From contig CATQHZ020000001.1 of the NCBI GenBank assembly GCA_958296135.2, positions 4,768,001 to 4,832,000 on the forward strand: DNA of 64,000 bases, given 5' to 3'. The number at the start of each line of letters is the position of its first letter. The stretch's first letter is position 1. Made by a program: the position numbers and the translations under genes. The notes beneath the pieces were generated by a model, which ran no database searches, was not told where the DNA came from, and was given only the letters and a program-made list of their open reading frames with translations. Positions 20,812 through 39,339 of this stretch are shown piece after piece. The stretch comes from an uncultured Poribacteria bacterium. Its GTDB lineage: Bacteria > Poribacteria > WGA-4E > WGA-3G.

Positions 20812-21309
20812 ATGGCAGACACACACAAACCCGCACCAGAACAGCCACCCCCCGCAACGCGTTCAACCGTCTTTACCGTCAAAGACGCAGAAAGAGCCGT
20901 CTACAACTTTCTCGCTCTCACCGTGGTCTACATTCTCGCGGTTTTCGCCTACGAGATTGACACCGCCTGGCACGGTTTCCTCGCGGTAGGGTGGATACTC
21001 TTTATACATTCACCGCAGTTTCTCGCAACTGCAACAATTCTCATCATTTCCCGAGAAGGAGGGGATATCATGTTATTCCGACGTTGGACAGAAGCCCGGC
21101 GACAGCACGCCGCAGCCGTCGCCAAAGCCAAAGACGAAGGCCGGAGCCAAGGCCTCAACCAAGGGCGCGACGAAGGCTTCAACCAAGGCCGCAACGAAGG
21201 GCGCGACGAAGGCCGCAACGAGATGCAGCAGCAGTGGACCGCGTGGAACACACGCCGCCTCGCCGCTGCAGCGAAGGGCGAACCTTTCAACGAACCACCG
21301 CCGCAATAA
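20812..21309 (+). CDS. Membrane protein with EGR/QG repeats and AWN..RR..GEPF.EPPP tail; internal in-frame start at 21070
   Basis: SD GGAGGA before ATG 20812; hydrophobic helices; second SD GAAGGAGGGG 5 nt before in-frame ATG 21070. Confidence 0.8.
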   Translation: MADTHKPAPEQPPPATRSTVFTVKDAERAVYNFLALTVVYILAVFAYEIDTAWHGFLAVGWILFIHSPQFLATATILIISREGGDIMLFRRWTEARRQHAAAVAKAKDEGRSQGLNQGRDEGFNQGRNEGRDEGRNEMQQQWTAWNTRRLAAAAKGEPFNEPPPQ

Positions 21310-21314
21310 ACGGC

Positions 21315-21356
21315 AAAAAAAGCGTGGGCCATTTCCATAAATGGCCCACGCTTCTC
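21315..21356. terminator. Hairpin terminator (copy 1)
   Basis: A7-GCGTGGGCCATTT-CCAT-AAATGGCCCACGC-TT; identical copy at 21926-21969. Confidence 0.7.
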
Positions 21357-21925
21357 GCGTCCAAAAAAACGCCAATACCAACCGAAACGCAAGAAACAGC
21401 ACCTTAAACCGGCCGCGCGAACCCCCCTGATTGACCCTAGCATGGCGCGGCACAGGACCGCGCCCTACGGACTAAGGGGGCCCTTTCCCTCGCGAAGCCC
21501 CGAACGAAACGAAAACGCAAAAACGCTACTTTTACCGTAGCGCGAGGGCCCGGCGATCACTAATCGCCGAGGGTTCCCCTCGCGATCGTGGGTCGAGCCG
21601 AAGAACCTCCCCTCCTACCGTAGCGCGAGGGCCCGGCGAGCGCGAATCGCCGAGGGAAACCCTCGCAATCGTAGGAGACGAAAACGGCCCTTCCACCGGC
21701 CCTCGCGAACCCCTTCGATTGACCCACACATGGCGCAGCACAGGACCGCGCCCTACGGTTCAAGGGGGGGCCTGTCACTCGCGAACCCCCTTGATAGACC
21801 CACGCATGGCGCAGCACAGCACCGCGCCCTACAGACTAAGGACCACCGGCCCGCGCAATCCCCTCAATAGACCCAGGCATGGCGCAGCACAAGACCGCGC
21901 CCTACGGTTCAAGGGGGCCCTCCCC
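21357..21925. repeat. REP/REPIN array
   Basis: Multiple GTAG-REP1 and REP2 units, some carrying a CGGCGA...TCGCCG loop cassette. Confidence 0.9.
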
Positions 21926-21969
21926 TAAAAAAAAGCGTGGGCCATTTCCATAAATGGCCCACGCTTCTC
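21926..21969 (-). terminator. Hairpin terminator (copy 2) downstream of the aspartyl protease
   Basis: Same hairpin followed by a T-run on the minus strand. Confidence 0.75.
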
Positions 21970-21981
21970 GCGCCCAAACCG

Positions 21982-22350
21982 CTAAGGTTCGGTGGAAACT
22001 CGTTCCAACTCAACGGTGCCAGTGACGAAATTAACCTGAAGCCGATAGGCACGCAACAGACGCGTCCCAAGCAGAATGTGACTATCTGCAACGAACGTCG
22101 TCCTTGCCCGAATGACTTGGCCGTCAAAAGGGAATTCAACTAAATAGACATCTTCCTCAATAGTTTGGCCCCCAGCTAACGCAAAAGTGACGGGCCCCAT
22201 ATAATTGACGACGTTCAAAGACGCGCGCAAGGTTTCTGGTAATTCCAAATCGCCGTTGAAACCGGTATCAATGGTAGCCACCCATTCGCGCCCTGCAACC
22301 CACAGGCGAATCGTCGGCACACCCGCTGCCGTGACTTTCCCCTGAATCAC
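21982..22350 (-). CDS. Clan AA (retropepsin-like) aspartyl protease
   Basis: IDTGFNGDL and ILLGTRLL; GTGA start/stop overlap with the upstream gene. Confidence 0.88.
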   Translation of the reverse strand: MIQGKVTAAGVPTIRLWVAGREWVATIDTGFNGDLELPETLRASLNVVNYMGPVTFALAGGQTIEEDVYLVEFPFDGQVIRARTTFVADSHILLGTRLLRAYRLQVNFVTGTVELERVSTEP

Positions 22351-22598
22351 CGACGGCCCCCTTTCAAAAAATAGGTTGCATGCCCAACGCGTTCAAAGAA
22401 AATGGGAGACTTCAAGCCTTCCGCTGCCCGTTGCTCAACGACATCTTCCATTGACTCACCGAACCAGATTCGGCCGCTTTTCGGATCGATGCCCGCTGTC
22501 TGCCCATGCCGCTCCGAGAGGTCATGCGCTTCTTGATACGCCTCCCAAACCTGCCGGCACTTGACTGAATCAGCCGGATCCCATCTTGGATCTCTCAT
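22347..22598 (-). CDS. Small hypothetical protein coupled to the aspartyl protease (antitoxin-like partner)
   Basis: MRDPRW...GQTAGIDPKSGRIWFGES...ERVG; SD GGAGG; 4-bp overlap with the protease. Confidence 0.75.
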   Translation of the reverse strand: MRDPRWDPADSVKCRQVWEAYQEAHDLSERHGQTAGIDPKSGRIWFGESMEDVVEQRAAEGLKSPIFFERVGHATYFLKGGRR

Positions 22599-22684
22599 CC
22601 TGAAATCCTCCTTGATACTAGACAACTTATACAATAAAATACCATCCCTCGCAAGCAAATGTCAACAAAAAACGCCAATACCAC

Positions 22685-23085
22685 GAATAGGCCCCTTGAA
22701 CCGTAGCGCGAGGGCCTGTCCCTCGCGAATCCCCGACCGACACAAAAAACGCCACCTTCCACCCAAACAAAAACGGCCCTTAAACCGTAGCGCGAGGGCC
22801 GTCACGCCGAAACTTTGTCATCTCTGCAGTCCCGCTGCAGAGATGTCCACTGTCCCTCGCGATCCCTCGATCCAAGCGAAAACGCCAATTAAACCGCAGC
22901 GCGAACCCCTTCGATTGACCTAGCATGGCGCAGCACAGGACCGCGCCCTACGGACTAAGGAAGCCCTCCCCTCGCGATCCCTCGATCCAAGCGAAAACGC
23001 CAATTAAACCGCAGCGCGAACCCCCCTTGATAGACCCACGCATGGCGCAGCACAGGACCGCGCCCTACGGTTCAAGGGGGCCCTT
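22685..23085. repeat. REP/REPIN array downstream of RAYT
   Basis: REP1 and REP2 units, with a 50-bp loop cassette at 22801-22850. Confidence 0.9.
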
Positions 23086-23604
23086 TCCTTTCCCTCCACC
23101 ACGGCGAAAATTCTCTGGCACAAGATAGGACCGGTCCAAAACCCACTGCCGCGGATTATTTTCAATATACGCACGAAACGCTCCCAAATCTGACGCATCG
23201 CGGATAACGTGCTCATGGAAACCCGGCTGCCACAACTTTTTACTAAAACGCCGCCAGCCCGCCGATGAAACTCCCCGAATATACGCACGCGTCGTAACAG
23301 ACTTAAAATAATTCACAATCTCCAGCAAGGACACCGCCGGAGAAGACTCCCGCAAAATAAATAAGATACCGTGGAAATGATCCGGCATCGCCTGACAAAA
23401 ATCCATCTGGAGATGTGGATACCGATGCCGCAATGCTGCCCACTGCCTTTCAAGCATGCTCGCAGCATCGTTTAAGATGAGCGCACCATCGCTGAGACCG
23501 CCGAAAAGGCAGGAGCGGTTGCGGGTAGCAAGGGTAACAAGGTACGCCCCCGGCTGGGAATAGTCGTATGCAGTGAGATGCGGATTTTTGCGTGATTTTT
23601 TCAT
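23065..23604 (-). CDS. rayT: REP-associated tyrosine transposase (RAYT/TnpA-REP, Y1 HUH)
   Basis: YDYSQPGAYLVT..T..R, MPDHFHGI (HUH), LWQPGFHEHVIRD, YIENNP (catalytic Tyr); flanked by REP arrays; its stop codon is the TAG of a REP GTAG. Confidence 0.92.
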   Translation of the reverse strand: MKKSRKNPHLTAYDYSQPGAYLVTLATRNRSCLFGGLSDGALILNDAASMLERQWAALRHRYPHLQMDFCQAMPDHFHGILFILRESSPAVSLLEIVNYFKSVTTRAYIRGVSSAGWRRFSKKLWQPGFHEHVIRDASDLGAFRAYIENNPRQWVLDRSYLVPENFRRGGGKGKGPLEP

Positions 23605-23609
23605 AAACA

Positions 23610-24520
23610 AAAACGGCCCCTTAAACCGTACAAAAACGGCCCTTGAACCGTAGCGCGAGGGCCCGGCGATCGCGAATCGCCGAGGGTTCCCCTCGCGATC
23701 GTGGATCGAAACAAAAACGCCCCTTTTACCGTAGCGCGAGGGCCGTTACGCCGAAACTTTGTCATCTCTGCAGCCTCGCTGCAGAGATGTCCACTGTCCC
23801 TCGCGATCGTTGATCGAAACAAAAACGCCCCTTGAACCGTAGCGCGAGGGCCGTCACGCCGAAACTTTGTCATCTCTGCCGCCTCGCTGCAGAGATGTCC
23901 ACTGTCCCTCGCGAACCCTCGACCCAAACAAAAACGGCCCTTCCACCAAAACAAAAACGGCCCCTTTTACCGTAGCGCGAGGGCCGTTACGCCGAAACTT
24001 TGTCATCTCTGCCGCCTCGCTGCAGAGATGTCCACTGTCCCTCGCGATCGTGGGTCGAGCCGAAGAACCTCCCCTCATTCCGTCTTGATAGACCTTAGCA
24101 TGGCGAGGCACAAGACCTCGCCCTACGGACTAAGGGGCCCTTTCCCTCGCGAACCCCATCGATAGACCTTAGCATGGCGAGGCACAAGACCTCGCCCTAC
24201 GGACTAAGGGGCCCTTTCCCTCGCGAACCCCATCGATAGACCTAGCATGGCGCAGCACAGGACCGCGCCCTACGGTTCAAGGGGCCCTTTCCCTCGCGAA
24301 CCCCATCGATTGACCTTAGCATGGCGAGGGACAGGCCCTCGCCCTACGGTTCAAGGGGCCCTTTCCCTCTGGCATGGCGAGGCACAAGACCTCGCCCTAC
24401 GGTTCAAGGGGCCCTTTCCCTCTGGCATGGCGCAGCACAAGACCGCGCCCTACGGTTCAAGGGGGCCCTTTCCCTCTAGCATGGCGCGGCACAGCACCGC
24501 GCCCTACGGACTAAGGGGCC
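23610..24520. repeat. Large REP array upstream of RAYT
   Basis: A run of REP1 units (three with the 50-bp cassette), then seven tandem REP2 units spaced about 73 or about 53 bp. Confidence 0.92.
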
Positions 24521-24526
24521 ACCCCT

Positions 24527-24571
24527 TAAAACAAAAAGCGCGGGCAATTTCATAAGAAATCGCCCGCGCTT
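24527..24571 (-). terminator. Rho-independent terminator of the large surface-protein gene
   Basis: AAGCGCGGGCGATTTC-TTAT-GAAATTGCCCGCGCTT followed by TTTGTTTT on the minus strand. Confidence 0.85.
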
Positions 24572-24600
24572 CGCGTTAGATGAGCTCTCCCTGAGAGAGA

Positions 24601-27600
24601 CTACTCACGATATTTCAATGCACCCCAGGTGGTCGTCGCTTTCCCTGCAGCACCCACATGCCCGTAAAGACGCGTGGTCCGCAAGGTCTGACGATCTCCA
24701 TCCAAGGAGACATCTTCGATTTGATAGAAATACAGAACATTCGGTTTGGCACTGGTGTCCGTCCACGTATACGTGTTCTTCTCACCCGTCGTGCCCGCAC
24801 CCGGAATCAACTGCGAATTGATCTTCGTGAACTCGCCTGTCCGAGACGCGCCACGCAGAATGTTAAACCCTGCATTGTCTAACTCAGACTCCGTCGCCCA
24901 CGTGATGACAACAGCACCCGCATCGTTACGCTTCGAGTAGAAACTCGACAACTGAACAGGCAGCGGACCGCCCGGCGTATAACCCGGTGTGCCGATATCG
25001 TCTTCATCGCCGTAGTAGAGGGTCTCAACACCCACTTCGCCACCATTCGTGTTGACCGCGGAACGCCATGCATCATCTTCCGTGCCATCACCTTCGGTGC
25101 CACTCACGCGGACCATGGAACTACGGCCGCCCTCTTCAAGGTTACCACCCTTCAAGGGCCAATTCGGTGCGGCGTTGCGCTTGTCGTCAAGGTTACCCAC
25201 CTCATCTACCATCACCTTATCAGGATCGGAGAGGCTGATGTAGAACCCAATGGTACTCAGCACGGCATCCCGACGACTTGTCATTTCTGCCGTATCGCGG
25301 AGACTCCGGGTCGACCAGATGCTGATAATCCGATCTCTCGGGAACCGCTTGTCGTCGTTGGAATCACCAGACGCACTCACAACCAGAACGGTCTGATTCG
25401 GCTGGATCCGCACGTCAGGCAGTCTCAACTCATAGTCAAACTTGACATTCAGGTCCTCCGAAGCATCGCTGACGTTCCGGACATTCAGTCTCCAACCATT
25501 TAACTTGACAGCCTGCGTCTTGGAGGGGTTATACAGCTCGATCCACTGCGGCACGCGGCCATTACCTGTGCCGAACATAATCTCGCTGATAACAACAGGA
25601 TCGGAGGCCGTGAGATCTTTGACTTTATCCTTCACGGCACCGTTGTCGTAACCCGGTGTACCGCTATTCATCGTAGTCGCAGCCCGGTCTATCCCGAGAC
25701 CCGTCACGCCGCCATCATGCTTCCAAGCATCGGCGTGGTCAAGGTTCTTGCCCTTGTCACGAACCCAGGTGTTGCCATTGCTCTCATTGAGATCGTTGGT
25801 TTGAATCGCCTCCCAGACTTTCAGCGGCCAGACTTTGGTACCCCGAGCATCATCGCTGAGGTTCAGATTCCCGATATGCCCAGCGATGTCAACAATCTTC
25901 TCATCTGATCCGAGCTTTTTCTCCGTCCGAAGGACGAGGAGGTAATTCTCTTTCGGAATATTCAGACCGCTGTCAATATAGAATTGCGTCGGCAAACCGT
26001 TCGCATTGCTACTCGGATTGTCAACGTTCTCACCCGCGGAGAGTGAAGTCTCGGACGGATCTTCATTGACAACCATCAGGAAGCCTTTCGCGGGAACCAT
26101 AATGTTCTCATCGCTCTCAAACGTAAACAGTTCGACGTCTTTATCATTACCAACACCGGTAACTTTGCTCAACACCCAGCCGTTGATTTTGACATCGGCA
26201 CTGCCAGGGTTGTAAAGTTCAAGCCAGTCGTCTTTCTCGCTGCTGCGGTTAGCAACCTCGTTGAAAACAACCGACTTGCTGATGCTCGTCTTGGTAATCT
26301 GCACCACCGCGCTTGTGCCCGGTGTGCCGAGACGAAGACCGCTCATGTTACGGCGGGGAGCCTTAGAAGCCTGCCAACTGCCGGATCTCGCACCGTCAGG
26401 AACCGCCCCTAATTGCTTATTCCGATTCTTAGCCGCGTCATTGGCATCATGTACCTTAGCGACATCAACGTAATTGATCTTACGCTCCATCGAAACGAGT
26501 TGACGTGCAGATACAACCACCGTCGCCTCTGTACGCCCACCTTGCCCGTAGGCACCACCGGCTACGTCGGAAACCTGCCAATAATTTTCGCCTAATCCCC
26601 AGTTAGTCAATTTATCAACCACTGGCGCAGCGGTAGTCGTGGCAGGGCCCGCTTTATCTGCGGGAACCGCAAGCATCGTAGCACCATTACCACCGTCTGT
26701 AAACTCAACTGTAAGCATGCCGGTGATAGCACTCGCTGTGGTATTATAGATTTCAATCCACTGGCTGTTCGTTGAAGGATTCTTCGAGGCATCGTTACCC
26801 CACATCAACTCACTGATAACGAGATCTTTCACATTCGCCCCAGTGAATTTCAGATCTATAGCACCACCACTGCCGGTCGCAAGGAAGTCACTCAGATCGA
26901 CCCAAGCTTCGTCTGCAACGTCCACGGGTGTGAGACCCGTAATACCGGAATCGTTAGGAGACTTCGCAAGCACCGTCCAATCATTAGCCGGAACTGTGAC
27001 CTGGACACTAAATCCTTTTCTTCCTGTCGGAAGCGACGTGCCAATTCCAGTCGGTGTCGTGGTAACAGGCACTGTAGTAACGGTAACTGTAAACGGCTTT
27101 GAGATCGCGGCATTACCGAGACCCGCTGACATCACACCATCTGCCTTCACTGTGACTGTCACAGGAGACTTCCGATCAGCCGCGTCCGGCAGCACAACCA
27201 TCGCAGTGTAGATAGCTTTCACGTCAGCCGTAGGAGGCATCGTTAGATCTCTGCTCAGACTACCTTCTTCAAGCGAACCGTTAGTAACGGTAATATCTGT
27301 CGCCTGTAAGCCATCGTTGGCACCGGCTCCCGGTTCCGCTGAAAGTTCAAACGTTACAGGAAATTTAAGCGTCATCGCATCAATCGGCACCGTAACCGTA
27401 GAATTAATGGTCACCGTCGGACGAGGGTTAATCGTGACATCCTCCGTCATCGCAGGATCGAGCTTGTTCCCGTTCACATCAGCGACAGCATCCTTCTTCA
27501 CCCCGACTGTCACCTTCGTGGCACCGTCAGCCGGATTGATGACAACAATAAACGTAGGTGTGCCCGCTGCAGCACCAGGTTTTGCCCACGAACCTACAAC

Positions 27601-28359
27601 TTCTGAAGGATCATCAGCACCTGAGGCAGGCGCAGGCGTGGTTGCAATGCTAACATCATCAGCATGAGCAAACCCAGCAGCTCCAGTCCCGAGGGGCTCG
27701 GAAAACTCAAACTCTAACTGAAAGATATCGTCAACACCCATGCCACCAGTAACGCTAATCGCCGACGCAGTACCTCCCGTGTTTGCTCCTCCGGTTATTG
27801 TTACCGTCGGTTTCAGCGTATCAAGGCTATCGTAAGCAATCGTCGCCACCACGCCAGTAGCGTCATACGTGTTAGTAGGAGCGGCATCTTCTTCAAACTC
27901 TACGCTGCCAGTAACAAAGGCTCTAAGACCAATGATGAGATTGCCCTTCTCATTGGTGGGAACTGCTACAGTCACTGTAAACGTCGTTCCTAATCCCGCT
28001 GTCGGCGTGCTATCCGTTTTCGCGAGCTCAGAACTTGTAGGCCGACGACTCTCACTGCTACCGTCTTCCTTATTAAAAGTGACTATAATATCTTCGACAC
28101 CAAATCCATCCACAGTAGTAACAGCAGCAGTCTCACCTGCCTTAGTCTCACCTGCCACCTTCACTGCTGCAGTGAAGGTGATTGTGGCTACAACATTGCC
28201 GCTCATAGCGGTCGCCCCCGCCGCGGGCGTTGTCTGTACTACCGTCGGTGTGCCTCCCAGGGCGGCATGCACGTCCACCACTGGAGCCGCGAGGAAGGTA
28301 ATTCCTGCGATCAGCAGTAAGACAAAGAAACTCGGTAAGGAAAGTAATTTCCTTTCCAT
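24601..28359 (-). CDS. Large secreted protein with Ig-like and three lamin-tail (LTD) domains; Poribacteria-type C-terminal domain
   Basis: Signal peptide; Thr/Val-rich Ig-like repeats; LVISELM..QWIEIYN, VVFNEV..DWLELYN, VVISEIM..QWIELYN; PLPVQLSSF...ATTWGALK. Confidence 0.88.
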   Translation of the reverse strand: MERKLLSLPSFFVLLLIAGITFLAAPVVDVHAALGGTPTVVQTTPAAGATAMSGNVVATITFTAAVKVAGETKAGETAAVTTVDGFGVEDIIVTFNKEDGSSESRRPTSSELAKTDSTPTAGLGTTFTVTVAVPTNEKGNLIIGLRAFVTGSVEFEEDAAPTNTYDATGVVATIAYDSLDTLKPTVTITGGANTGGTASAISVTGGMGVDDIFQLEFEFSEPLGTGAAGFAHADDVSIATTPAPASGADDPSEVVGSWAKPGAAAGTPTFIVVINPADGATKVTVGVKKDAVADVNGNKLDPAMTEDVTINPRPTVTINSTVTVPIDAMTLKFPVTFELSAEPGAGANDGLQATDITVTNGSLEEGSLSRDLTMPPTADVKAIYTAMVVLPDAADRKSPVTVTVKADGVMSAGLGNAAISKPFTVTVTTVPVTTTPTGIGTSLPTGRKGFSVQVTVPANDWTVLAKSPNDSGITGLTPVDVADEAWVDLSDFLATGSGGAIDLKFTGANVKDLVISELMWGNDASKNPSTNSQWIEIYNTTASAITGMLTVEFTDGGNGATMLAVPADKAGPATTTAAPVVDKLTNWGLGENYWQVSDVAGGAYGQGGRTEATVVVSARQLVSMERKINYVDVAKVHDANDAAKNRNKQLGAVPDGARSGSWQASKAPRRNMSGLRLGTPGTSAVVQITKTSISKSVVFNEVANRSSEKDDWLELYNPGSADVKINGWVLSKVTGVGNDKDVELFTFESDENIMVPAKGFLMVVNEDPSETSLSAGENVDNPSSNANGLPTQFYIDSGLNIPKENYLLVLRTEKKLGSDEKIVDIAGHIGNLNLSDDARGTKVWPLKVWEAIQTNDLNESNGNTWVRDKGKNLDHADAWKHDGGVTGLGIDRAATTMNSGTPGYDNGAVKDKVKDLTASDPVVISEIMFGTGNGRVPQWIELYNPSKTQAVKLNGWRLNVRNVSDASEDLNVKFDYELRLPDVRIQPNQTVLVVSASGDSNDDKRFPRDRIISIWSTRSLRDTAEMTSRRDAVLSTIGFYISLSDPDKVMVDEVGNLDDKRNAAPNWPLKGGNLEEGGRSSMVRVSGTEGDGTEDDAWRSAVNTNGGEVGVETLYYGDEDDIGTPGYTPGGPLPVQLSSFYSKRNDAGAVVITWATESELDNAGFNILRGASRTGEFTKINSQLIPGAGTTGEKNTYTWTDTSAKPNVLYFYQIEDVSLDGDRQTLRTTRLYGHVGAAGKATTTWGALKYRE

Positions 28360-28915: not shown

Positions 28916-28944
28916 ATTATACCACAAAAGTGGGTAGATGTCAA
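28916..28944 (-). promoter_or_regulatory. Consensus sigma-70 promoter P1 of the surface-protein gene
   Basis: TTGACA-17-TATAAT with extended TG. Confidence 0.85.
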
Positions 28945-29669: not shown

Positions 29670-30035
29670 TTACGAACTCTCAACACCGTTCGGCGGCGGC
29701 TCGTCAAACGGTTCACCCTTCTCAGCCGCAGCGATGCGCCGTTCATACCACGCGTTAGCGGCCGCCTGTTCCTCCTGCAGCTGCGCGACAACACCGGGGT
29801 CTGTCCCATTAGGCATCGGTTCGTCAAACGGCGCGCCAATTTGCTCAGCGTGGAGACGGCGTTTGTTCCAAGCCTGCAGCGCCTCGCGTTCTTCCTGTAA
29901 CCGCGCAATGGTCTCGGCAGCACGGCGGTTCTCTTCAGCAGCCGTGCGTATCGCCGCTTCCGCAGCAAGTCGGCCTTCGCGCTCCTCGCGAATCCTACCA
30001 TCGCGCCATTCACGATACCGGTCATGAAGCATCAT
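29670..30035 (-). CDS. Small soluble protein with two AW..RR..G.PFDEP.P modules (copy 1)
   Basis: SD AAGGAG 8 nt before ATG 30035; homologous to 32009-32347 and 32874-33212. Confidence 0.8.
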   Translation of the reverse strand: MMLHDRYREWRDGRIREEREGRLAAEAAIRTAAEENRRAAETIARLQEEREALQAWNKRRLHAEQIGAPFDEPMPNGTDPGVVAQLQEEQAAANAWYERRIAAAEKGEPFDEPPPNGVESS

Positions 30036-30051: not shown

Positions 30052-30668
30052 CCCGTAGCGCGAGGGCCTGTCCCTCGCGATCGTTCATCGAAACGAAAAC
30101 GGCCCCCTTCCACCATCGCGCGAGGGCCGTTACGGTCACGTCTACAGTTGTCCCTCGCGAGCGTTCATCGAAACGAAAACGGCCCCCTTCCACCGTCGCG
30201 CAAGAGCCTCTCCCGCGCCGCCCATCGATAGACCTAGCATGGCGGAGGACAGGCCCCCGCCCTACGGACTTAGGGGGCCCCTTGAACCGTAGCGCGAGGG
30301 CCTGTCCCTCGCGATCGCTAGACCGAAACAAAAACGCACCGCCTACCGGCGCGCAAGAGCCTGTCCCGCGCGAGCCCCTTGATAGACCTAGCACGGCGGG
30401 GGACAGGCCCCCGCCCTACGGACTTAGGGGTCCCTTCGCACCGTAGCGCGAGGGCCCGGCGAGCGCGAATCGCCGAGGGGAACCCTCGCGAGCGTTCATC
30501 GAAACGAAAACGGCCCCCTTCCACCGTCGCGCAAGAGCCTCTCCCGCGCCGCCCATCGATAGACCTAGCATGGCGGAGGACAGGCCCCCGCCCTACGGAC
30601 TAAGGGGCCCTTAAACCGTAGCGCGAGGGCCCGGCGAGCGCGAATCGCCGAGGGGAACCCTCGCGAGC
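30052..30668. repeat. REP/REPIN array
   Basis: Multiple REP1 and REP2 units; 20-bp loop cassette at 30129-30148. Confidence 0.9.
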
Positions 30669-30768: not shown

Positions 30769-31233
30769 CTATCCCCCAACTTCCTGTAGCCATGTGTATG
30801 GATTTTCGACGCGCACGCGAAGATGCTCGTGGGACCGTTTCGCCCTCTTAAGCAATCCATCGTCCGTTGTGAGCAAGACATCCGCGCCGCCGCTCTCTGC
30901 ACACGCAATATGCAAGGCATCAAACCACGGGAATCCTAGCCATTCCAGTTGGACGGCCCGGGCGGTTTCCATCTCACCAACGCGAACCGTTTGATGCGCC
31001 GTATTCAGTTTGGTATTGATGGTATTACGCTGTGTCACATTAGGATTCTGGGCAACTTCATTTGCCAAAGCATCACTCACAATCCAATGTAAGTGCCCCG
31101 TGGAGAAATAAGCATTGAGTCGCTGAAATGCCTCGGTCTCTTGGCGCACCCGATCTTGCGTCTGATCGTCAAAGGGCCGCCCCAAGCAGCACGTATCCAG
31201 ATAGATGTTCTGGTGGTGGAACTGACTTTGCAC
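30769..31233 (-). CDS. PIN-domain (VapC-like) toxin
   Basis: IYLDTCCL.RPFDDQ, DALHIACAE, LLTTDD, VENP. Confidence 0.9.
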   Translation of the reverse strand: MQSQFHHQNIYLDTCCLGRPFDDQTQDRVRQETEAFQRLNAYFSTGHLHWIVSDALANEVAQNPNVTQRNTINTKLNTAHQTVRVGEMETARAVQLEWLGFPWFDALHIACAESGGADVLLTTDDGLLKRAKRSHEHLRVRVENPYTWLQEVGG

Positions 31234-31241
31234 GAGTCTGC

Positions 31242-31826
31242 CTATTCCTTTCCGCTGCGCTGCTTCGCCTTGCGTGCCTCAAAAATTTGCGCGAGGAATT
31301 CTTCCTTACTGATCTGACTCAGCCATTTGCGCCGTTCTAAGGTGTAGTTGCCGGTGCCCGGGGTGCACAGCAGAGACAACCGAAACAGGCCCGGGAGCCC
31401 CAGTTCTTTTGAAACCGCATCAAGCCCGAGTTGATGCACCTCACAATCTGTCAACTGACTAATGTCTTTCGGAGGTTCATTGACAGCGCGGCTTGCATGG
31501 CATTCGCGCAAGGAATCCACTGAATCCCTCTTTTCGTCGCTCGTGCAGGAAGCATGTTCCACGACATCAACCCCCTCTTGCAGGGGGTTTCCGCCTTGCA
31601 CCGTCGGTAACAACTGTTCGCGTTGACAAAGGGAAGCCTGCATCCCACGCATCAGCGTTGCCTTCTCCAACTCATCTACCCATTCACGGCGTTTCGCCGC
31701 CTTGTCGCCCATACCGGCTTTAGCAAACGCCAGAAACCGCTTTAGCCCAAAGGGGCCTAAGGTCTCCAAAAGTGTATCAAGTATCAGTTGATACCACTCC
31801 GGATCTGTCATTTCAAGTCTATTCAT
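31242..31826 (-). CDS. Putative antitoxin with an internally duplicated domain
   Basis: Two copies of (M/L)TD.E..QL.LD....LG..GL.R.......G.G...RR.W; lies directly upstream of the PIN gene; TTGACA-18-TAAAAT at 31878-31849. Confidence 0.75.
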   Translation of the reverse strand: MNRLEMTDPEWYQLILDTLLETLGPFGLKRFLAFAKAGMGDKAAKRREWVDELEKATLMRGMQASLCQREQLLPTVQGGNPLQEGVDVVEHASCTSDEKRDSVDSLRECHASRAVNEPPKDISQLTDCEVHQLGLDAVSKELGLPGLFRLSLLCTPGTGNYTLERRKWLSQISKEEFLAQIFEARKAKQRSGKE

Positions 31827-32008
31827 CCTCAATTACCTCCTATTAATTATTTTACTTTAAGTTGCCACCGAATGTCAAACAGCCGAAAGCGTGGGGCCAC
31901 GGGCAGGGAGAGGCCGGTTTTCTTCACCGTAGGGCGGAGGCCGTTACGCCTTCAGTCTGTCATCTCCGCCGGTTTTCCTGCAGACATGTCCACTGTCCCT
32001 CACGAGCA

Positions 32009-32347
32009 TTACGAACTCTCAACACCGTTCGGCGGCGGCTCATCAAACGGTTCACCCTTCTCAGCCGCAGCGATGCGCCGTTCATACCACGCGTTGGCAG
32101 CCGCTTGTTCTTCCTGCAACTGCTCAAGAACAGGAGAACCCGTCCCATTAGGCATCGGTTCGTCAAACGGCGCGCCATTTTCTTGCGCCCGGAGACGGCG
32201 TTCGTTCCAAGCCTGCTGAGCACCGCGTTCTTCCTGTAACTGTGCGACAGCCGCGCGCGCCGTTTCCTCCGCAGCGTGGAGCCGCGCTTCCAGCTCGCGC
32301 CGACGTGCCGCCAATTTTTCGCGATACCACTCATGTAACATCATCAT
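32009..32347 (-). CDS. Small soluble AW..RR..EP.P-module protein (copy 2)
   Basis: SD AGGAG; near-identical to 32874-33212. Confidence 0.8.
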   Translation of the reverse strand: MMMLHEWYREKLAARRRELEARLHAAEETARAAVAQLQEERGAQQAWNERRLRAQENGAPFDEPMPNGTGSPVLEQLQEEQAAANAWYERRIAAAEKGEPFDEPPPNGVESS

Positions 32348-32379
32348 TAAAACTCCTGTGGAGAAGGAGCCGTTTTTTC

Positions 32380-32866
32380 CACCGTAGCGCGAGGGCCTGT
32401 CCCTCGCGATCGTCGATCAAGCCGAAAACCTCCCCTTCCACCGTCGCGCGAGGGCCGTTACGGTCACGTCTACAGTTGTCCCTCGCGAGCGTTCATCGAA
32501 ACGAAAACGGCCCCCTTCCACCGTCGCGCAAGAGCCTCTCCCGCGCCGCCCTTCGATAGACCTAGCATGGCGGAGGACAGGCCCCCGCCCTACGGACTAA
32601 GGGGCCCTTCCACCATCGCGCAAGAGCCTGTCCCGCGTGATCGTTCATCCAAACAAAAACGGCCACTTCCACCAACGAAAAACGCCACTTTCACCGTAGC
32701 GCGAGGGCCCGGCGATCACTAATCGCCGAGGGTTCCCCTCGCGATCCCCCGACCGTCTCAAAAACGTCAATTAAACCGTAGCGCGAGGGCTTGTCCCTCG
32801 CGAGCCCCTTGATAGACCTAGCATGGCGGAGGACAGGCCCCCGCCCTACGGACTTAGGGGCCCTTT
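32380..32866. repeat. REP/REPIN array
   Basis: REP units; part of an 865-bp tandem duplication. Confidence 0.9.
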
Positions 32867-32873
32867 GCGCTCA

Positions 32874-33212
32874 TTACGAACTCTCAACACCGCTCGGCGG
32901 TGGCTCGTCAAACGGTTCACCCTGCTCAGCCGCAGCGATGCGCCGTTCATACCACGCGTTGGCAGCCGCCTGTTCCTCCTGCAACTGCGCGACAACACCG
33001 GGGTCTGTCCCATTAGGCATCGGTTCGTCAAACGGCGCGCCGTTTTCTTGCGCCCGGAGACGGCGTTCGTTCCAAGCCTGCTGAGCACCGCGTTCTTCCT
33101 GTAACTGTGCGACAGCCGCGCGCGCCGTTTCCTCCGCGGCGTGGAGCCGCGCTTCCAGCTCGCGCCGACGTGCCGCCAATTTTTCGCGATACCACTCATG
33201 TAACATCATCAT
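32874..33212 (-). CDS. Small soluble AW..RR..EP.P-module protein (copy 3)
   Basis: Offset 865 bp from copy 2; a mosaic of copies 1 and 2. Confidence 0.8.
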   Translation of the reverse strand: MMMLHEWYREKLAARRRELEARLHAAEETARAAVAQLQEERGAQQAWNERRLRAQENGAPFDEPMPNGTDPGVVAQLQEEQAAANAWYERRIAAAEQGEPFDEPPPSGVESS

Positions 33213-33244
33213 TAAAACTCCTGTGGAGAAGGAGCCGTTTTTTC

Positions 33245-33648: not shown

Positions 33649-33685
33649 CACGCTTCTTCAAAGCAGCTCCTTCTATTTCTGTTAC

Positions 33686-33714
33686 AGTTTACGCTATTTG
33701 CGGCGAAAAGTCAA
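33686..33714 (-). promoter_or_regulatory. Sigma-70 promoter reading into the REP array
   Basis: TTGACT-17-TAAACT. Confidence 0.65.
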
Positions 33715-33738
33715 GGGACATTTGCACACCAGCGGCAC

Positions 33739-35481
33739 TTAGGCATCACATGCCCCACATTTCCTGCAAACCGCCGTATCGCACTCACTCGTCATGAAGC
33801 CTTTTTCATGCTTGTGGAACTCTAACCGCAGGAATTGCGGTTTCACGTTCAGATCGAGGTGGGCCCAAGGGGATATTTCATGGAGGGGACGTTGACGGAG
33901 GGCATAAAAATCGGGGGCTAACCCGTGTTGACGGAACGCTTGATTCCACGCTGCGCCGCGCGCGAGGGCTAAAATCACCTTGCCGAGCCGCCGGTCGCCG
34001 CGCGCGAAGACTGCTTCCTGATGCGCCAGCCGCGCACTTGCAGAACCAACCTTGATGCTACCGAGCCGGTTAATCTCGCGCTTGAGAAAATCAAGTTTCC
34101 GAGCGATAGTCTTCGGCGGTTCCATCGCTACCCACTGGAACGGCGTGTGCGGCTTCGGCACCATCGGCGAGATAGTGAAACTGATGCGGCCCATTCTCCC
34201 AGTCCGCTTCGCATGCGGGAGAAGAATGCTGCGCATCTCTCTCGCCATATCGGCGATAGCCTGCACATCTGCCGGTGTCTCGTCCGGCACACCGATGAGG
34301 AAATAGAGACGCAAATTGAGGATGTCGCGCTTCAACGCCTCTTCAAAGATATAATAGAGACGTTCACGCGGGATGGCCTTGTTGACGACTTTCTGCAGAT
34401 GCTCGGTGGCAACCTCGGGGGCAATGGTAATGGTGCCTTGTTCGCTGTCGGCGAGGGCATCAAGGAGCGGCGCGCGCACCGTCTCCGCACGGAGCGAAGC
34501 ACAGGAGATGCGGAAGCCACGCGCCACTAAGCCGGCAGCAATCTCGTCGATTTGCGGATGGTCAGAAATCGAAGCACCGACTAAGCCAATTCTGTCCGTG
34601 ATGCCGCGGGCGCGCTCAGCAAGAGCAAGCGTGTTTTCAACAGAGCGATGCCTCGGCCAGCGGCGCGCGTAATCCGCAACGCAGAACCGACACTGCCGGC
34701 CACAACCCCGCACAATTTCAATCAGGTGCGCATTGGAAAATTCGGTATGCGGCGTATGAAGCTGCGTGCAGGTCTGGACATCATCAAGCTTCGGCACAGC
34801 AGCGGCGTGAATCGGAAGAGACGCGCCGGAACCGCACCGCGGCTGCACATGCTGGACAGTGCCATCATCGTGATAGGTAACGTCATAGAAACATGGCACA
34901 TAGAGCCCAGGAACCATCGCGAGCGTTTCAAGCAACTCGGTCTTCGGCGCGCCGCTCTGTTTCCACGCATCAAAGCGCGCCATCAATTCGTGGATAACCA
35001 ACTCCGCCTCTCCGACAACGAAAACGTCAACGAAATCCGCGATAGGTTCCGGATTATAGGAGATGTTAATGCCACCGGCGATGACGAGCGGATCCCAGTC
35101 AGAACGTTCTTCAGCGAGGGGCGGGATATTGGCGAACTCCAGCACGCGCGGGATGTTCACGTAATCGGACTCAAAGGAGACAGAGAACCCAATGATGTCG
35201 AATTGGTTAAGCGGCGTTTGCGTCTCAAATGAGAAGAGCGGTGTTTTCTGAGCGATGAGCTGCCGCAGATAACTGGCTTCGGGCACGAAGGCACGCTCGC
35301 AAGAGGTATCCGCACGCGCGTTAAGCGTGGCATAGATAACCTGAACGCCGAGACTGGACATGCCGAGCTCATAAGTGCTCGGATAGACAAGAGCAAATCG
35401 GTTACGTTTTCGGAACTGCGAGAACTGCTGGTTTTCGTGCTCTTGCTCGAGTAAGTGTTGGTAGTGTTTTCGTAGATTCAA
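33739..35481 (-). CDS. Radical SAM protein (TIGR03960-like, B12-binding-like N-terminus)
   Basis: YPSTYELGMSSLG, NPEP, EIVRGCGRQCRFC (CxxxCxxC), PKPHTPFQW. Confidence 0.9.
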   Translation of the reverse strand: MNLRKHYQHLLEQEHENQQFSQFRKRNRFALVYPSTYELGMSSLGVQVIYATLNARADTSCERAFVPEASYLRQLIAQKTPLFSFETQTPLNQFDIIGFSVSFESDYVNIPRVLEFANIPPLAEERSDWDPLVIAGGINISYNPEPIADFVDVFVVGEAELVIHELMARFDAWKQSGAPKTELLETLAMVPGLYVPCFYDVTYHDDGTVQHVQPRCGSGASLPIHAAAVPKLDDVQTCTQLHTPHTEFSNAHLIEIVRGCGRQCRFCVADYARRWPRHRSVENTLALAERARGITDRIGLVGASISDHPQIDEIAAGLVARGFRISCASLRAETVRAPLLDALADSEQGTITIAPEVATEHLQKVVNKAIPRERLYYIFEEALKRDILNLRLYFLIGVPDETPADVQAIADMAREMRSILLPHAKRTGRMGRISFTISPMVPKPHTPFQWVAMEPPKTIARKLDFLKREINRLGSIKVGSASARLAHQEAVFARGDRRLGKVILALARGAAWNQAFRQHGLAPDFYALRQRPLHEISPWAHLDLNVKPQFLRLEFHKHEKGFMTSECDTAVCRKCGACDA

Positions 35482-35498
35482 TATGCTGCTCCAGTGGC

Positions 35499-35912
35499 TC
35501 AGAGTTGGTATTCCGTGCGTTCGCCGCCATGTGCCGGATTATGGATAAGCCCCTCTCTCACATTCACATCCAGATCTAACAGTTCCATCACCATATGCCC
35601 AACAAGCGCAGGAACGTTGTCCGGCAAACTGCTTACCTCTATGATGCCTTTCCGCGATAGCACGGTAAACTGGACAGGCGAATAAAGCGTCCGAGTCACA
35701 ATGCCGTTTGTCGTGTGGACCAGGGTGGTATCGGTAGGTGTCAAACCGAGACTGTCAATTATCGATTGCGGCAAAGAGAGCCGCGTCGCACCGGTATCAA
35801 CAATCGCGCCTTTGATAGTCACCTGCCGAACCTCTTCAGAACCAATAATGCCAACTTCAGCCAAAACCAGATCTTTCTGATTTGCGACGTGGATGGTGGT
35901 CCTGTGTTGCAT
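35499..35912 (-). CDS. Clan AA aspartyl protease (tandem copy 2)
   Basis: IVDTGATRLSLP, ALVGH; SD GGAGGAG. Confidence 0.88.
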   Translation of the reverse strand: MQHRTTIHVANQKDLVLAEVGIIGSEEVRQVTIKGAIVDTGATRLSLPQSIIDSLGLTPTDTTLVHTTNGIVTRTLYSPVQFTVLSRKGIIEVSSLPDNVPALVGHMVMELLDLDVNVREGLIHNPAHGGERTEYQL

Positions 35913-35937
35913 CGTTTTATCTCCTCCAAAGATGTCA

Positions 35938-36354
35938 TCAGAGTTGGTATTCCGTGCGTTCGCCGCCATGCGCGGGATTATGGATAAGCCCCTCTCTCAC
36001 ATTCACATCCAGATCTAACAGTTCCATCACCATGTGTCCCACAAGCGCAGGAACGTTGTCCGGCAAACTGCTTACCTCTATGATGCCTTTCCGCGATAGC
36101 ACGGTAAACTGGACAGGCGAATAAAGCGTCCGAGTCACAATGCCGTTTGTCGTGTGGACCAGGGTGGTATCAGTAGGTGTCAAACCGAGACTGTCAATTA
36201 TCGATTGCGGCAAAGAGAGCCGCGTCGCACCGGTATCGACAATCGCGCCTTTGATAGTCACCTGCCGAACCTCTTCAGAGCCAATAATGCCGAGTTCTAC
36301 CGCAACCAGATCTTTCTGATTTGCGACGTGGATGGTGGTTCTATGTTGCATCAT
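35938..36354 (-). CDS. Clan AA aspartyl protease (tandem copy 1)
   Basis: Near-identical to 35499-35912, 439-bp offset. Confidence 0.88.
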   Translation of the reverse strand: MMQHRTTIHVANQKDLVAVELGIIGSEEVRQVTIKGAIVDTGATRLSLPQSIIDSLGLTPTDTTLVHTTNGIVTRTLYSPVQFTVLSRKGIIEVSSLPDNVPALVGHMVMELLDLDVNVREGLIHNPAHGGERTEYQL

Positions 36355-36557
36355 TTTATCTCCTTTCAAACGGATAAGAGTCCGGCGCGCTGCCATCACC
36401 GTCCCGGACTCACGTAGTAACGAGGAGCTGTCCCTCGCAATGCCGAGGTAGAGCCCGTCAGAATGTTCATCTGAGCCCTACCTCGCCTCGTTTGAACGCA
36501 ACCGAACGGAAACGACAGCGCGAGAAACAAAACGGTTCCGCCGGGCAGACTGCGCGC

Positions 36558-37907
36558 CTATTTCCCAGACTTCCCGCCTCGCTTCTGCACGCGCAGGAAG
36601 GCCGGAATATCCCAGTCCGTCTCGCCACGTCCGCTGCTAGTCCCGGTGGCGGCAGGTTGCTGCGCGGGTGCCGGTCTCCGTGCCTGTCTCGCAGGTGGTT
36701 TTTCCGCCGGTGGCTGCTGCGCCGGCGCGGCAGGCGCGCCGGCGGCAGGGAACCCAGCTGCAGAACGGCCCGGGCGCGTTCGGCCCTGGGGTGCCGCGCT
36801 CGTACGGGAACCACCCAGATGCTGCCCAGGCAGCGGTGCCCGGCGTTCCGGGTAAGCCTCCTGTTCATTGTACTGCCTCGGTGCCACCCGCGGATCGACC
36901 CCGGATGCGCGCAAATCCTCTGTATCAAACCCTGTCGCAATGACGGTGACAAGCACCTCATCGCCGAGCTCCAAACTGTCTTTGTAGACAAGCCCGAAGA
37001 TAATCTGCGCATCGGTAGCCGCATCTTGGATTACCTGCATCGCCTCATCCAATTCGTGCATCATGAAATCGGGCGGTGAGGTGATGTTGACAATCATGCC
37101 ATAGGCACCGTTGATGTCAGTTTCCTCAAGAAGCGGCGAAGAAATTGCCTGTTGGGCAGCGGCTTGCGCACGGTTATCGCCCGTGGCGCGCCCCATGCCC
37201 ATCAGCGCACTGCCTGCTTCACGCATGATAGACTCCACATCGGCGAAGTCAACGTTAATCTCACCCGCCTCCGTAATAATATCCGAGATACTCTGAACGC
37301 CGTGGAGCAAAATCTCGTCTCCAACGCGGAGCGCCTCCTGAATCGGCAGTTTTCTGTCCATCGCATCCATCAAGCGTTGGTTCGGAACGACGATGACAGA
37401 ATCGGCGGATGCACGAAGCTCCTCAAGACCGGTTTCGGCTGCCTCGGCGCGCCGCATCCCCTCAAAATTGAAAGGACGGGTAACAACACCGATAGTGAGT
37501 GCCCCGCGTTCGCGCGCAAGCGATGCAATGAGCGGCGCTGCCCCGGTGCCAGTACCGCCGCCCATGCCAGCGGTGACGAACACCATGTTCGCATCCTCAA
37601 CAATCTTTTGCAGATGCTCCCGGTCTTCTTCCGCCGCTTTTCGGCCAACTTCGGGATTCGCACCGGCACCAAGGCCGTTAGTGGTGTTAATCCCAATCTG
37701 GAGTTGTGTCGCGCCATGGCACGTTTTCAACGCTTGATGGTCGGTGTTCACCGCGTAGAATTCGATGCCGGCTAATCCTGCTTCAATCATCCGTTTGACA
37801 GCGTTGCCACCAGCACCGCCGACACCGATGACCTTAATTTTCGCCCGCAGATCTCCAAATTCTTCTTGTTCAAATTCAATCATGTCTGGTTTCGGTTGCG
37901 CTTGCAC
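36558..37907 (-). CDS. ftsZ: Cell division protein FtsZ
   Basis: GVGGAGGNAV, GGGTGTG, NVDFAD, C-terminal DIPAFLR. Start uncertain (37946, 37907 or 37883). Confidence 0.97.
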   Translation of the reverse strand: MQAQPKPDMIEFEQEEFGDLRAKIKVIGVGGAGGNAVKRMIEAGLAGIEFYAVNTDHQALKTCHGATQLQIGINTTNGLGAGANPEVGRKAAEEDREHLQKIVEDANMVFVTAGMGGGTGTGAAPLIASLARERGALTIGVVTRPFNFEGMRRAEAAETGLEELRASADSVIVVPNQRLMDAMDRKLPIQEALRVGDEILLHGVQSISDIITEAGEINVDFADVESIMREAGSALMGMGRATGDNRAQAAAQQAISSPLLEETDINGAYGMIVNITSPPDFMMHELDEAMQVIQDAATDAQIIFGLVYKDSLELGDEVLVTVIATGFDTEDLRASGVDPRVAPRQYNEQEAYPERRAPLPGQHLGGSRTSAAPQGRTRPGRSAAGFPAAGAPAAPAQQPPAEKPPARQARRPAPAQQPAATGTSSGRGETDWDIPAFLRVQKRGGKSGK

Positions 37908-38094
37908 TACAACCTCATTCCTCCTATTTTTTCCCGATGATACCAAATCAATTCACGCTAATTCAGGCTCGTCCGAACCCGAAAGGTCAAAATCAGGGAA
38001 TCTGGTTTCCCTACAGAGATGAGACAAATCAACGTTATTTGGTATTATAGACTCGATTTGACTGCACCTATTGGACATCATAACACTGCATTGC

Positions 38095-38385
38095 GATCGA
38101 AACAAAAACGGCCCATTCAACCGTAGCGCGAGGGCCGTCACGGTCACGCCTACAGAAAACGTGCGTGTGTCGCCCCGCGTAAACACGGTCACGTCTACAG
38201 AAAATGTGCGTGTGTCGCCCCGCGTAAACACGCTACCTTACTTACTTTAACTTTGTCCTCTCTGCAGCCTCGCTGCAGAGATGCCCACTGTCCCTCGCGA
38301 ATCGCTAACAAAAACGGCCCATTCAACCGTAGCGCGAGGGCCCGGCGATCGCGAATCGCCGAGGGTTCCCCTCGCGATCGCTCGA
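38095..38385. repeat. REP array with a 152-bp composite loop cassette
   Basis: Insert 38137-38288 contains a 45-bp tandem duplication. Confidence 0.9.
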
Positions 38386-38393
38386 CCGACATC

Positions 38394-38576
38394 TTACAGC
38401 GCGCTGTTACGTTTCTCGGCAGGGTTGGGTTCGGTGAAGTCTTCGCCGGCGGCTTCCGCTGCCTTCCGACGTGCTTCCCACTCAACCCACTCGCGGTTCG
38501 CAAGCTCTCTGCCGAGGGCCTCGCGCATCCGCTGACGCTTCTCAATCCCCTCGCGGACTAAATTATACAAAATCAT
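38394..38576 (-). CDS. Short EW..RR..GEDFTEPNP protein (tandem copy 3)
   Basis: GGAGGTTCCC-ATG at 38576; 60 aa. Confidence 0.7.
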   Translation of the reverse strand: MILYNLVREGIEKRQRMREALGRELANREWVEWEARRKAAEAAGEDFTEPNPAEKRNSAL

Positions 38577-38632
38577 GGGAACCTCCACTACTGCAAAGAA
38601 AAGATAGGGAGCGCGATGCGGTGCCGTGCACC

Positions 38633-38824
38633 TCATGCGTCTTGTGACGTACCATTGCGTTTCTCGGCAGGGTTGGGTTCGGTGAAGTCTTCGCCGGCGG
38701 CTTCCGCTGCCTTCCGACGTGCTTCCCACTCAACCCACTCACGCCGCTCAAGCTCTCTGCCGAGGGCCTCGCGCATCCGCTGACGCTTCTCAATCTGCTC
38801 TTGGACTAAACCATACAAAATCAT
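38633..38824 (-). CDS. Short EW..RR..GEDFTEPNP protein (tandem copy 2)
   Basis: GGAGGTTCCC-ATG at 38824; 63 aa. Confidence 0.7.
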   Translation of the reverse strand: MILYGLVQEQIEKRQRMREALGRELERREWVEWEARRKAAEAAGEDFTEPNPAEKRNGTSQDA

Positions 38825-38880
38825 GGGAACCTCCACTACTGCAAAGAAAAGATAGGGAGCGCGATGCGGTGCCGTGCACC

Positions 38881-39339
38881 TCATGCGTCTTGTGACGTGC
38901 CATTGCGTTTCTCGGCAGGGTTGGGTTCAGTGAAGTCTTCGCCGGCGGCTTCCGCTGCCTTCCGACGTGCTTCCCACTCAACCCACTCGCGGTTCGCAAG
39001 CTCTCTGCCGAGGGCCTCGCCGCGCGCCTCGCGCATCCGCTGACGCTTCTCAATCCCCTCGCGGACTAAATTATACAAAATCATGGGAACCTCCACTCCT
39101 AAAAATAAAATCAGAACGGGAATAGTTATCGCCGTCGGAATACACCCCGTGGTATCAACGACAATTGCACGCACCGTCTCATAACCAGCCCAGCCTTTTG
39201 ACAGATGATAGGCAATTGCCATACCACCATAAACCAAGACAAGGACACAAAAGATGAGTAGCGCGATACCTACCCACCCCTGTCGGACACCTAGAAATTG
39301 CACCCGATCTCTCTCTTTCTGCTGTTCATCTTTCTTCAT
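38881..39339 (-). CDS. Two-TM membrane protein with EW..RR..EPNP tail; internal in-frame start at 39084
   Basis: MKKDEQQ..., two hydrophobic helices, internal AGGAGTGGAGGTTCCC-ATG. Confidence 0.78.
   Translation of the reverse strand: MKKDEQQKERDRVQFLGVRQGWVGIALLIFCVLVLVYGGMAIAYHLSKGWAGYETVRAIVVDTTGCIPTAITIPVLILFLGVEVPMILYNLVREGIEKRQRMREARGEALGRELANREWVEWEARRKAAEAAGEDFTEPNPAEKRNGTSQDA

Follow-up and report, generated by a model that had tools for sequence, protein, structure and literature searches.

Predicted small membrane proteins of Candidatus Poribacteria combine a conserved candidate internal start with repeat-number variation and downstream short copies, as in the rpn genes

Among described systems the closest to the genes reported here are the rpn genes, which in the available text of Zhong et al. 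2023 (PMC10400941) carry an internal start with its own ribosome-binding site (RBS) that yields RpnS. The same text places four-residue repeats 8–20 residues past the RpnS Met, within a long helix serving as the dimer interface, and reports that repeat number differs among strains, that RpnL is blocked only by RpnS of matching number, and that small copies (RpnSs) lie downstream of some rpn genes, each derived independently from its own upstream gene. A commentary on Rpn asks, in the part available, whether intragenic regulators are the tip of an iceberg (PMC10400984). Here we describe two long and five short genes sharing a C-terminal tail, found in a 64,000-nt stretch of an uncultured Poribacteria bacterium (GCA_958296135.2, contig CATQHZ020000001.1, positions 4,768,001–4,832,000 of the forward strand), together with the family to which they belong. 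The whole stretch is called the window, and all feature coordinates are counted in window positions. Judged by sequence, this is a second family, unrelated to Rpn, that shows the whole set of Rpn traits on a predicted membrane protein rather than a nuclease.

All seven open reading frames (ORFs) listed in an initial annotation of the window are present where it placed them. The tail W..RR..A...G..F.EP.P is common to all seven, with the alignment columns W, RR, A, A, G, F, E, P and P invariant, and both long members have the internal sites that had been assigned to them, a Shine-Dalgarno (SD) sequence followed by an in-frame ATG (GAAGGAGGGGATATC-ATG with the ATG at 21070, and AGGAGTGGAGGTTCCC-ATG with the ATG at 39084). 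The shared tail and the internal SD-ATG sites are thus confirmed as real. The genes and associated signals, including those of the predicted transmembrane (TM) part, are as follows.

20812–21309, plus strand: long form A, 165 amino acids; N-terminal region, two hydrophobic segments, junction Met, EGR/QG four-residue repeats and the tail WNTRRLAAAAKGEPFNEPPP.
21055–21072, plus strand: candidate internal SD of long form A; GAAGGAGGGG, then 5 nt and the in-frame ATG at 21070, with GGAGG at 21058–21062, 7 nt from the ATG.
21133–21221, plus strand: 12-nt (four-residue) tandem repeat within long form A; Tandem Repeats Finder period 12, 7.3 copies.
29670–30035, minus strand: orphan short form with two tail motifs and no TM part; GGAG 8 nt ahead of an ATG pair.
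32009–32347, minus strand: orphan short form with two tail motifs, 112 amino acids; GGAG upstream of ATGATGATG.
32874–33212, minus strand: orphan short form with two tail motifs, 112 amino acids; a near copy of 32009–32347.
38314–38330, minus strand: terminator-like hairpin and T run after the last short copy, inside a repeat resembling repetitive extragenic palindromes (REP); a consensus match only.
38394–38576, minus strand: downstream short copy 2, 60 amino acids from an SD-ATG at 38576.
38633–38824, minus strand: downstream short copy 1, 63 amino acids from an SD-ATG at 38824.
38881–39339, minus strand: long form B, 152 amino acids, between ftsA and ftsZ; predicted TM1, loop helix, TM2 continuous with a cytoplasmic repeat helix, and tail.
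39082–39100, minus strand: candidate internal SD of long form B; AGGAGTGGAGG, GGAGG at 39094–39090, a 5-nt spacer and the in-frame ATG at 39084.
39377–39405, minus strand: sigma-70-like promoter upstream of long form B; TTGACA-17-TAAAAT, 11/12, with TG; a consensus match only.

The two long members had been called dissimilar in their TM regions; they are divergent, with 22–26% identity to other paralogs, yet homologous through the TM part too, and profile matches at full length span model positions 1–169, TM part included, in many genomes. The remaining five had been described as consisting of the post-ATG part only, each with its own SD; three of them hold two tail motifs each. The ORFs at 38394 and 38633 are tandem duplicates (248 bp, 92–96% identical) of the 3' part of the long form B gene, and the likeness begins at GTGGAGG, that is, at the SD itself. 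In short-read contigs from four DNA runs of one sample the 248-bp unit collapses into a 278-nt circular contig, the depth of which relative to the flanks is about 2x in runs X1, X2 and X4 and about 1.6x in X3. Short copy 1 can alternatively be read as 83 amino acids from 38884, through an ATGA overlap with the stop of long form B. The promoter-like and terminator-like matches bracket long form B plus its two short copies. An origin of the near-identical 3' copies from a diversity-generating retroelement was considered and rejected, the differences being clustered multi-base changes that are not adenine-specific.

Profile searches indicate an undescribed, Poribacteria-wide family of predicted small inner-membrane proteins. 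The tail pattern occurs 20 times in 17 ORFs of the source genome, nine of which are long forms of one architecture, and a profile built from these nine gives 24 matches in that genome (up to 24 per genome across the phylum). A long-form-like match at C1:3664253–3664678 of the source genome, 26% identical to the double-motif long form P0093, was missed by the tail pattern, so the copy count for this genome is a lower bound. Across Candidatus Poribacteria the profile matches in 134 of 176 genomes (109/111 in family f1, 10/11 in f2, 14/29 in f3 and 0/24 in the other eight families), with more than 880 matches in all, and against 1.84 billion representative proteins it returns 1367 matches at E<=1e-3 and 338 at E<=1e-10. 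The relatives carry a single name, 'hypothetical protein [Candidatus Poribacteria bacterium]', and no description of the family was found in the literature. For family members Pfam gave nothing above threshold, NCBIfam gave sub-threshold FliH matches on the repeat segment only, PADLOC gave no matches, and PHROGs gave nothing meaningful, the sole match being phrog_4785 (function unknown) on the repeats. Sequence searches of the PDB returned no relative, also with the short-form profile; Foldseek against the PDB returned nothing at E<=0.001, and the VIA wide fold search reached a best Z of 7.5 with generic helical hairpins (MscS, ATP synthase c subunit). No fused forms were seen among relatives of 385–2000 amino acids, which is weak evidence, and one scan of viral contigs with one member gave (KAEG)n low-complexity matches and no true relative. 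The two nearest Atlas clusters have Chloroflexota as their commonest phylum, an unconfirmed lead on range beyond Poribacteria.

Comparison of related loci shows that the candidate start signals are conserved at the nucleotide level. The loci comprised the best locus per genome from 30 genomes, two orthologous loci and 14 stretches picked for adjacent partial matches, with three duplicates (L009, L025, L052) left out. The initial annotation depended on the internal SD and Met being kept in homologs, and they are: a Met occupies the aligned junction in 63 of the 65 long ORFs, the other two being truncated copies in L043, and GGAG or GAGG lies 4–13 nt upstream of the junction Met in 60/65 (GGAGG in 37/65). 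Among internal in-frame ATGs of long ORFs in the source genome, GGAG or GAGG stands 4–13 nt ahead in 5.4% and GGAGG in 0.75% (146/19478), a background low enough to exclude chance for the internal sites. Since relatives are not independent, the 63 long forms were grouped at 50% identity of the TM part into 15 clusters, and in 12 of these every member carries the motif. Across clusters the motif is written in two codon registers (GGA-Gnn or nnG-GAG), encoding Gly-Gly, Gly-Val, x-Glu-x or Trp-Glu, and it keeps a start-like distance to the ATG despite the shifts in register. Where a Gly codon before Gly or Val forms the motif, that codon is GGA in 31/31 cases. In the remainder of these ORFs GGA accounts for 91 of 517 Gly codons (17.6%), and for 4 of 40 where the next residue is Gly or Val. 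The invariant choice of GGA, combined with the shifting registers, argues for selection on the nucleotides themselves. Genome-wide in the source genome GGA makes up 17.2% of Gly codons and 8.9% of those before Gly or Val, and this lower share is consistent with genes generally avoiding SD-like GGAG in their interior. A larger, protein-only sample has a Met within four residues of the junction in 194 of 216 long forms (90%) and exactly there in 75%, while at other positions Met averages 13% and at most reaches 34%. From these signals we infer that a short product would be translated from the internal start of the long mRNA.

The AlphaFold2 model of long form B, built on a 77-sequence alignment, has a predicted local distance difference test (pLDDT) score of 89.6 and consists of TM1 (H20–47), a short loop helix (H53–64) and a single unbroken helix (H67–131) that starts as TM2, continues through the four-residue repeats to the W..W..RR..A.A segment and gives way to a G.DF.EP.P tail. 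The junction Met, residue 86 of long form B, falls within this last helix of the model. Hydropathy indicates two hydrophobic regions in all nine long paralogs of the source genome, and Lys plus Arg number 2–6 in the N-terminus, 0–3 in the loop and 5–9 in the first 25 residues past TM2. By the positive-inside rule the topology is predicted to be N-in with two TM helices and C-in, which would place the free short form and the long-form tail in the same cytoplasm. The C-terminal module is accordingly modelled as a long cytoplasmic helix with a variable count of xxxG repeats, capped by a W..W..RR..A.A.G.PF.EP.P tail. A model of a double-motif short form has two helices with no confident packing and a predicted template modelling (pTM) score of 0.37.

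Variation in repeat number is quantised. Full-length relatives of long form B (64–100% identity) measure 148+4k residues in 27/27 cases, within a range of 148–176, and their length differences correspond to whole EAxG/RAIG units. Between a long gene and its adjacent downstream short copy the Met-to-W distance differs in all 12 pairs, one of which combines members of different subfamilies; the difference ranges from 4 to 28 residues and is in every case divisible by four. In the window both short copies have the same Met-to-W distance and are one repeat shorter than long form B.

Stand-alone short forms start at the junction Met in many subfamilies, as the initial annotation had proposed for those of the window, and in several subfamilies gene prediction by other projects yielded proteins with exactly this Met as their first residue (MILY.., MLFRRW.., MIKY.., MYLTN.., MSLYH.., MLLSD..). 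Short ORFs in the examined loci lie on the same strand as a long gene and directly downstream of it, and since they are present in several subfamilies they have arisen repeatedly. The Met is kept in 24 of 29 such ORFs and the SD in 18; of the six with Met and without SD, three share an ATGA with the stop codon ahead of them (L007 twice, L008), two begin 12–13 nt past that stop (L011, L043) and one does neither (L028). Duplication junctions lie immediately upstream of the SD in the window copies and in L004, L044 and L043. For 13 of 24 short modules the nearest long module is that of the adjoining gene. Individual long/short pairs hold few changes; pooled over 13 pairs, long C-termini and downstream short copies differ by 98 synonymous and 110 non-synonymous changes, with a ratio of non-synonymous to synonymous change (pN/pS) of 0.33, and the pairs in L001 and L011 differ by synonymous changes only (3 synonymous, 0 non-synonymous). 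A dead copy paired with a constrained one should raise pN/pS above 0.33, so the short genes look constrained. The tail motif occurs in one, two or three copies per protein. In the source genome the double-motif subfamily comprises three short genes only, and its long TM form is found elsewhere (P0093). The sequence comparisons thus show a family with one putative architecture, recurrent and apparently constrained downstream short genes, and variation in repeat number.

The parallel with Rpn (YhgA-like) proved closer than the initial annotation knew, in that variable four-residue repeats after the internal Met and downstream small copies both have counterparts here. Shared features are an in-frame internal RBS and start that would free a C-terminal module (sequence signals in the Poribacteria family); four-residue repeats, each of one hydrophobic residue with charged residues or Gly, set in a predicted helix after the internal Met and varying in number between close relatives; small downstream copies derived from their own upstream gene; and several copies per genome with tandem duplication, the repeats and small copies of Rpn being taken from the available account of it. 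The N-terminal part differs, being a predicted two-TM hairpin here and a PD-(D/E)XK nuclease in Rpn: Pfam and NCBIfam scans of family members found no PD-(D/E)XK domain (TIGR01784 / Transposase_31), and TIGR01784 has no match in the whole source genome, whereas the same search finds Rpn in control genomes. The end of the module differs as well, the W..RR..G.PF.EP.P tail being modelled as a long helix plus extended tail, unlike the DUF4351 three-helix bundle, and DUF4351 (PF14261) gave no match even at E<=1. The repeats also begin further from the Met, the first G-x-x-x-G pair lying 21–25 residues past it in eight of the nine long forms of the source genome (the ninth has none), as opposed to the 8–20 residues given for Rpn in the text available. 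Because N-terminal domain and tail both differ, the Poribacteria family is not a member of Rpn; of the 'analogous undescribed system' suggested by the initial annotation, the sequence-level architecture and the undescribed family stand, and Rpn membership does not follow. The source genome also encodes, at C1:42243–43337 (L001:244–1338, minus strand), a 364-amino-acid protein with EGRE-type four-residue repeats and only a weak Yae1_N match in Pfam. By eye we take its N-terminal region to be Rpn-like and its end to be DUF4351-like, although TIGR01784 finds nothing in the genome.

Three other families resemble parts of these proteins. The dual-start genes of phage holins and antiholins encode small two-TM proteins whose cytoplasmic C-terminus is charged, and each gives rise to two products; both products keep the TM helices and the gene lies in a lysis cassette. 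The Poribacteria proteins share the first of these features and, as a prediction, the second. Unlike in holins, the second start lies past the last TM helix, so that the short form would have no membrane part, and a dual-start holin was rejected on this ground, no lysis-gene neighbour having stood out and the one viral scan having given low-complexity matches only. The repeat segment, and that region only, scores against four NCBIfam FliH models, and glycine repeats (GxxxG) of variable number are described for FliH/YscL in the available text of Trost and Moore 2009 (PMC2674601). Membership was rejected, since a window member reaches 30.7 bits against a cut-off of 180 and the best match 58.2 against 293, nothing in FliH beyond this region matches, and a flagellar or type III context is lacking. 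The repeats also give a weak Pfam match to Yae1_N (PF09811, GX3 motif) of 16.6 bits, below the gathering score of 27.5, and some relatives carry a precomputed PF09811 label; homology was rejected, the match reflecting a shared low-complexity helix motif.

In three genomes the space between ftsA and ftsZ is occupied by one paralog group, that of long form B. In the window ftsA and ftsZ (region 36558–40692) lie about 1.5 kb apart, the gap holding the long gene and its short copies, and the order ftsQ-ftsA-X-ftsZ recurs in two other Poribacteria genomes (L007, L008). Just upstream of long form A is a PD-DExK nuclease gene (20066–20671, plus strand; PADLOC PDLC01472, 5e-50). It was rejected as a partner of long form A, as it belongs to its own family of 46 matches in the source genome, which is not linked to the long forms and is partly arranged in tandem arrays (for example C1:2355202–2359918).

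On an Rpn-like reading, which we regard as quite possible and put forward tentatively, the C-terminal module would be made in two ways, as the end of the long protein and as a free short protein. The latter would have two sources, the SD and ATG (in rare cases GTG) within the long gene where its last TM helix ends, and the additional short copies that follow the long gene directly, in the same operon, as products of duplication. If RpnL/RpnS is a guide, free short protein would pair with the long form along the repeat helix that is identical in both, and would thereby govern whether the membrane part self-associates or is active; the length of the helix, set by repeat number, would decide which short form fits which long form. 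Both the pairing and the role of the membrane part as an effector kept in check are inferred from the comparison with Rpn, and the interpretation given by the initial annotation may be considered partly supported.

Several observations weigh against this Rpn-like reading. The motif is absent from three singleton clusters (L028, L029, L038), and in two clusters comprising 15 long forms GGAG lies 14 nt and GGAGG 13 nt from the ATG, 14 nt being at the edge of the range of spacings enriched at likely true starts of the source genome, which peaks at 5–11 nt. In the protein-only sample 22 of the 216 long forms have no Met near the junction, and mostly have Val at the aligned residue. In one Val subfamily with DNA, two close orthologs have GTG and four others ATG, with GGAGG 10 nt upstream in 6/6; the GTG orthologs are compatible with an internal start and are not independent evidence for one, because GTG is the only Val codon that a single change can make out of ATG. 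The residues ahead of the Met are themselves loosely conserved (GG.D, GVD, EIGG, VEV, WEF, KEAVD; G-[GV]-x-[DE] or E-x-G-G), and a protein-level constraint could account for some of the G-richness; it is only the GGA codon choice and the register shifts that argue for selection at the nucleotide level. The surroundings of the internal ATG are AT-rich (GC content 0.34–0.36) and weakly folded (about -4 kcal/mol against -6.5 to -8 elsewhere in genes), which is start-like but confounded, as hydrophobic codons give the same effect. The counts overstate independence, because the loci are relatives of one another and entered the set as best matches or visible arrays. In no case does a downstream short copy have as many repeats as its long gene, and such copies would not, under the Rpn rule, be its cognate partners. 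No neighbour family is conserved across subfamilies among the loci examined, and with no PADLOC matches either, nothing points to toxicity or defence; the stable position between ftsA and ftsZ fits a housekeeping role as well.

Some of these points are accommodated by a somewhat unlikely alternative without a gene inside the gene, in which the junction Met and GGAG would be kept because the long protein, or the making of it, needs them. Examples are a Gly/acid motif with a structural role where the protein leaves the membrane, or a translational pause at an SD-like sequence once the TM hairpin has been made. Free short protein would then come only from separate downstream or orphan genes. The loose motif ahead of the Met, the 13–14 nt spacing in two large clusters, the 22 long forms without Met and the many loci that hold short genes with their own start signals would all follow. 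Against it, the uniform use of GGA at the site answers to no protein-level need, and the motif shifts register between clusters with its distance to the ATG kept; a pause needs no ATG, yet the Met is the best-kept residue of the N-terminal two thirds; and most long genes (for example 20812–21309, L002, L005 and L006) have no downstream short gene in the stretch examined. An inert origin of the short ORFs, by replication slippage or unequal crossing-over in a repeat-rich genome, with neither translation nor function, is very improbable. The region is full of REP-like repeats and tandem duplications, degenerate or truncated copies occur in L028, L043 and L051, and 5/29 short ORFs have no Met, but the pooled pN/pS and the several pairs with synonymous changes only tell against debris, as do the recurrence of short forms across many subfamilies and genomes and the SD, stop-start overlap or near-abutment kept by 23 of the 24 Met-bearing short ORFs.

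It is also conceivable, although we consider it unlikely, that the tail W..RR..A...G.PF.EP.P docks a third, cytoplasmic partner, which long forms would hold at the membrane and for which free short forms with one to three motifs would compete; the internal start may still be used in this case. The tail is the most conserved part of the proteins and a repeatable unit, the double-motif model does not pack confidently on itself, the source genome has orphan short forms without a cognate long form, and one paralog group is fixed between ftsA and ftsZ. On the other hand no conserved neighbour gene was found among the loci and no partner is known, and the hypervariable helix length and recurrent tandem copies are more easily explained by length-matched pairing, as in Rpn.

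A second unrelated family with the whole Rpn trait set would make the layout a general design and not a peculiarity of Rpn. A broader and doubtful extension, again by analogy, is that an internal start, a length-variable helix of four-residue repeats and spare downstream short copies form a portable control cassette that bacteria have joined to effectors of unrelated kinds, namely the nuclease of Rpn and, here, a two-TM hairpin. In Poribacteria a large family of abortive-infection toxins would then act at the membrane, an intragenic antitoxin of its own would restrain each of them, helix length would serve as the pairing code, and downstream and orphan short genes would be a reserve of other code values for cross-protection or donors for gene conversion. 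With this family it could be tested cleanly whether repeat number acts as a pairing code. The family also indicates hundreds of overlooked small proteins in an uncultured phylum, and synonymous selection for GGAG ahead of a conserved Met could serve annotation pipelines as a codon-level signature of internal starts.

The window contains further repeats and duplications. Dense intergenic arrays resembling REP or bacterial interspersed mosaic elements (BIME), with periods of 22–175 nt, occupy 19468–24520, 30345–30668, 32649–32695 and 38101–38342, and among them is a gene for an IS200-like Y1 transposase resembling REP-associated tyrosine transposases (23065–23610, minus strand; Pfam Y1_Tnp, 7e-7). 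A 439-bp tandem duplication (96% identical; 35499–36399, minus strand) has given two retropepsin-like aspartyl protease genes, and a third small gene similar to this pair lies at 21982–22350. A PIN-domain gene (30769–31233; Pfam PIN, 5.5e-7) is preceded by a 196-amino-acid ORF without a family match (together 30769–31832, minus strand), and the two may form a toxin-antitoxin pair. The stretch at 24601–28359 (minus strand) encodes a secreted-looking protein of 1252 amino acids with two Lamin Tail Domain stretches (Pfam LTD, 6e-27).

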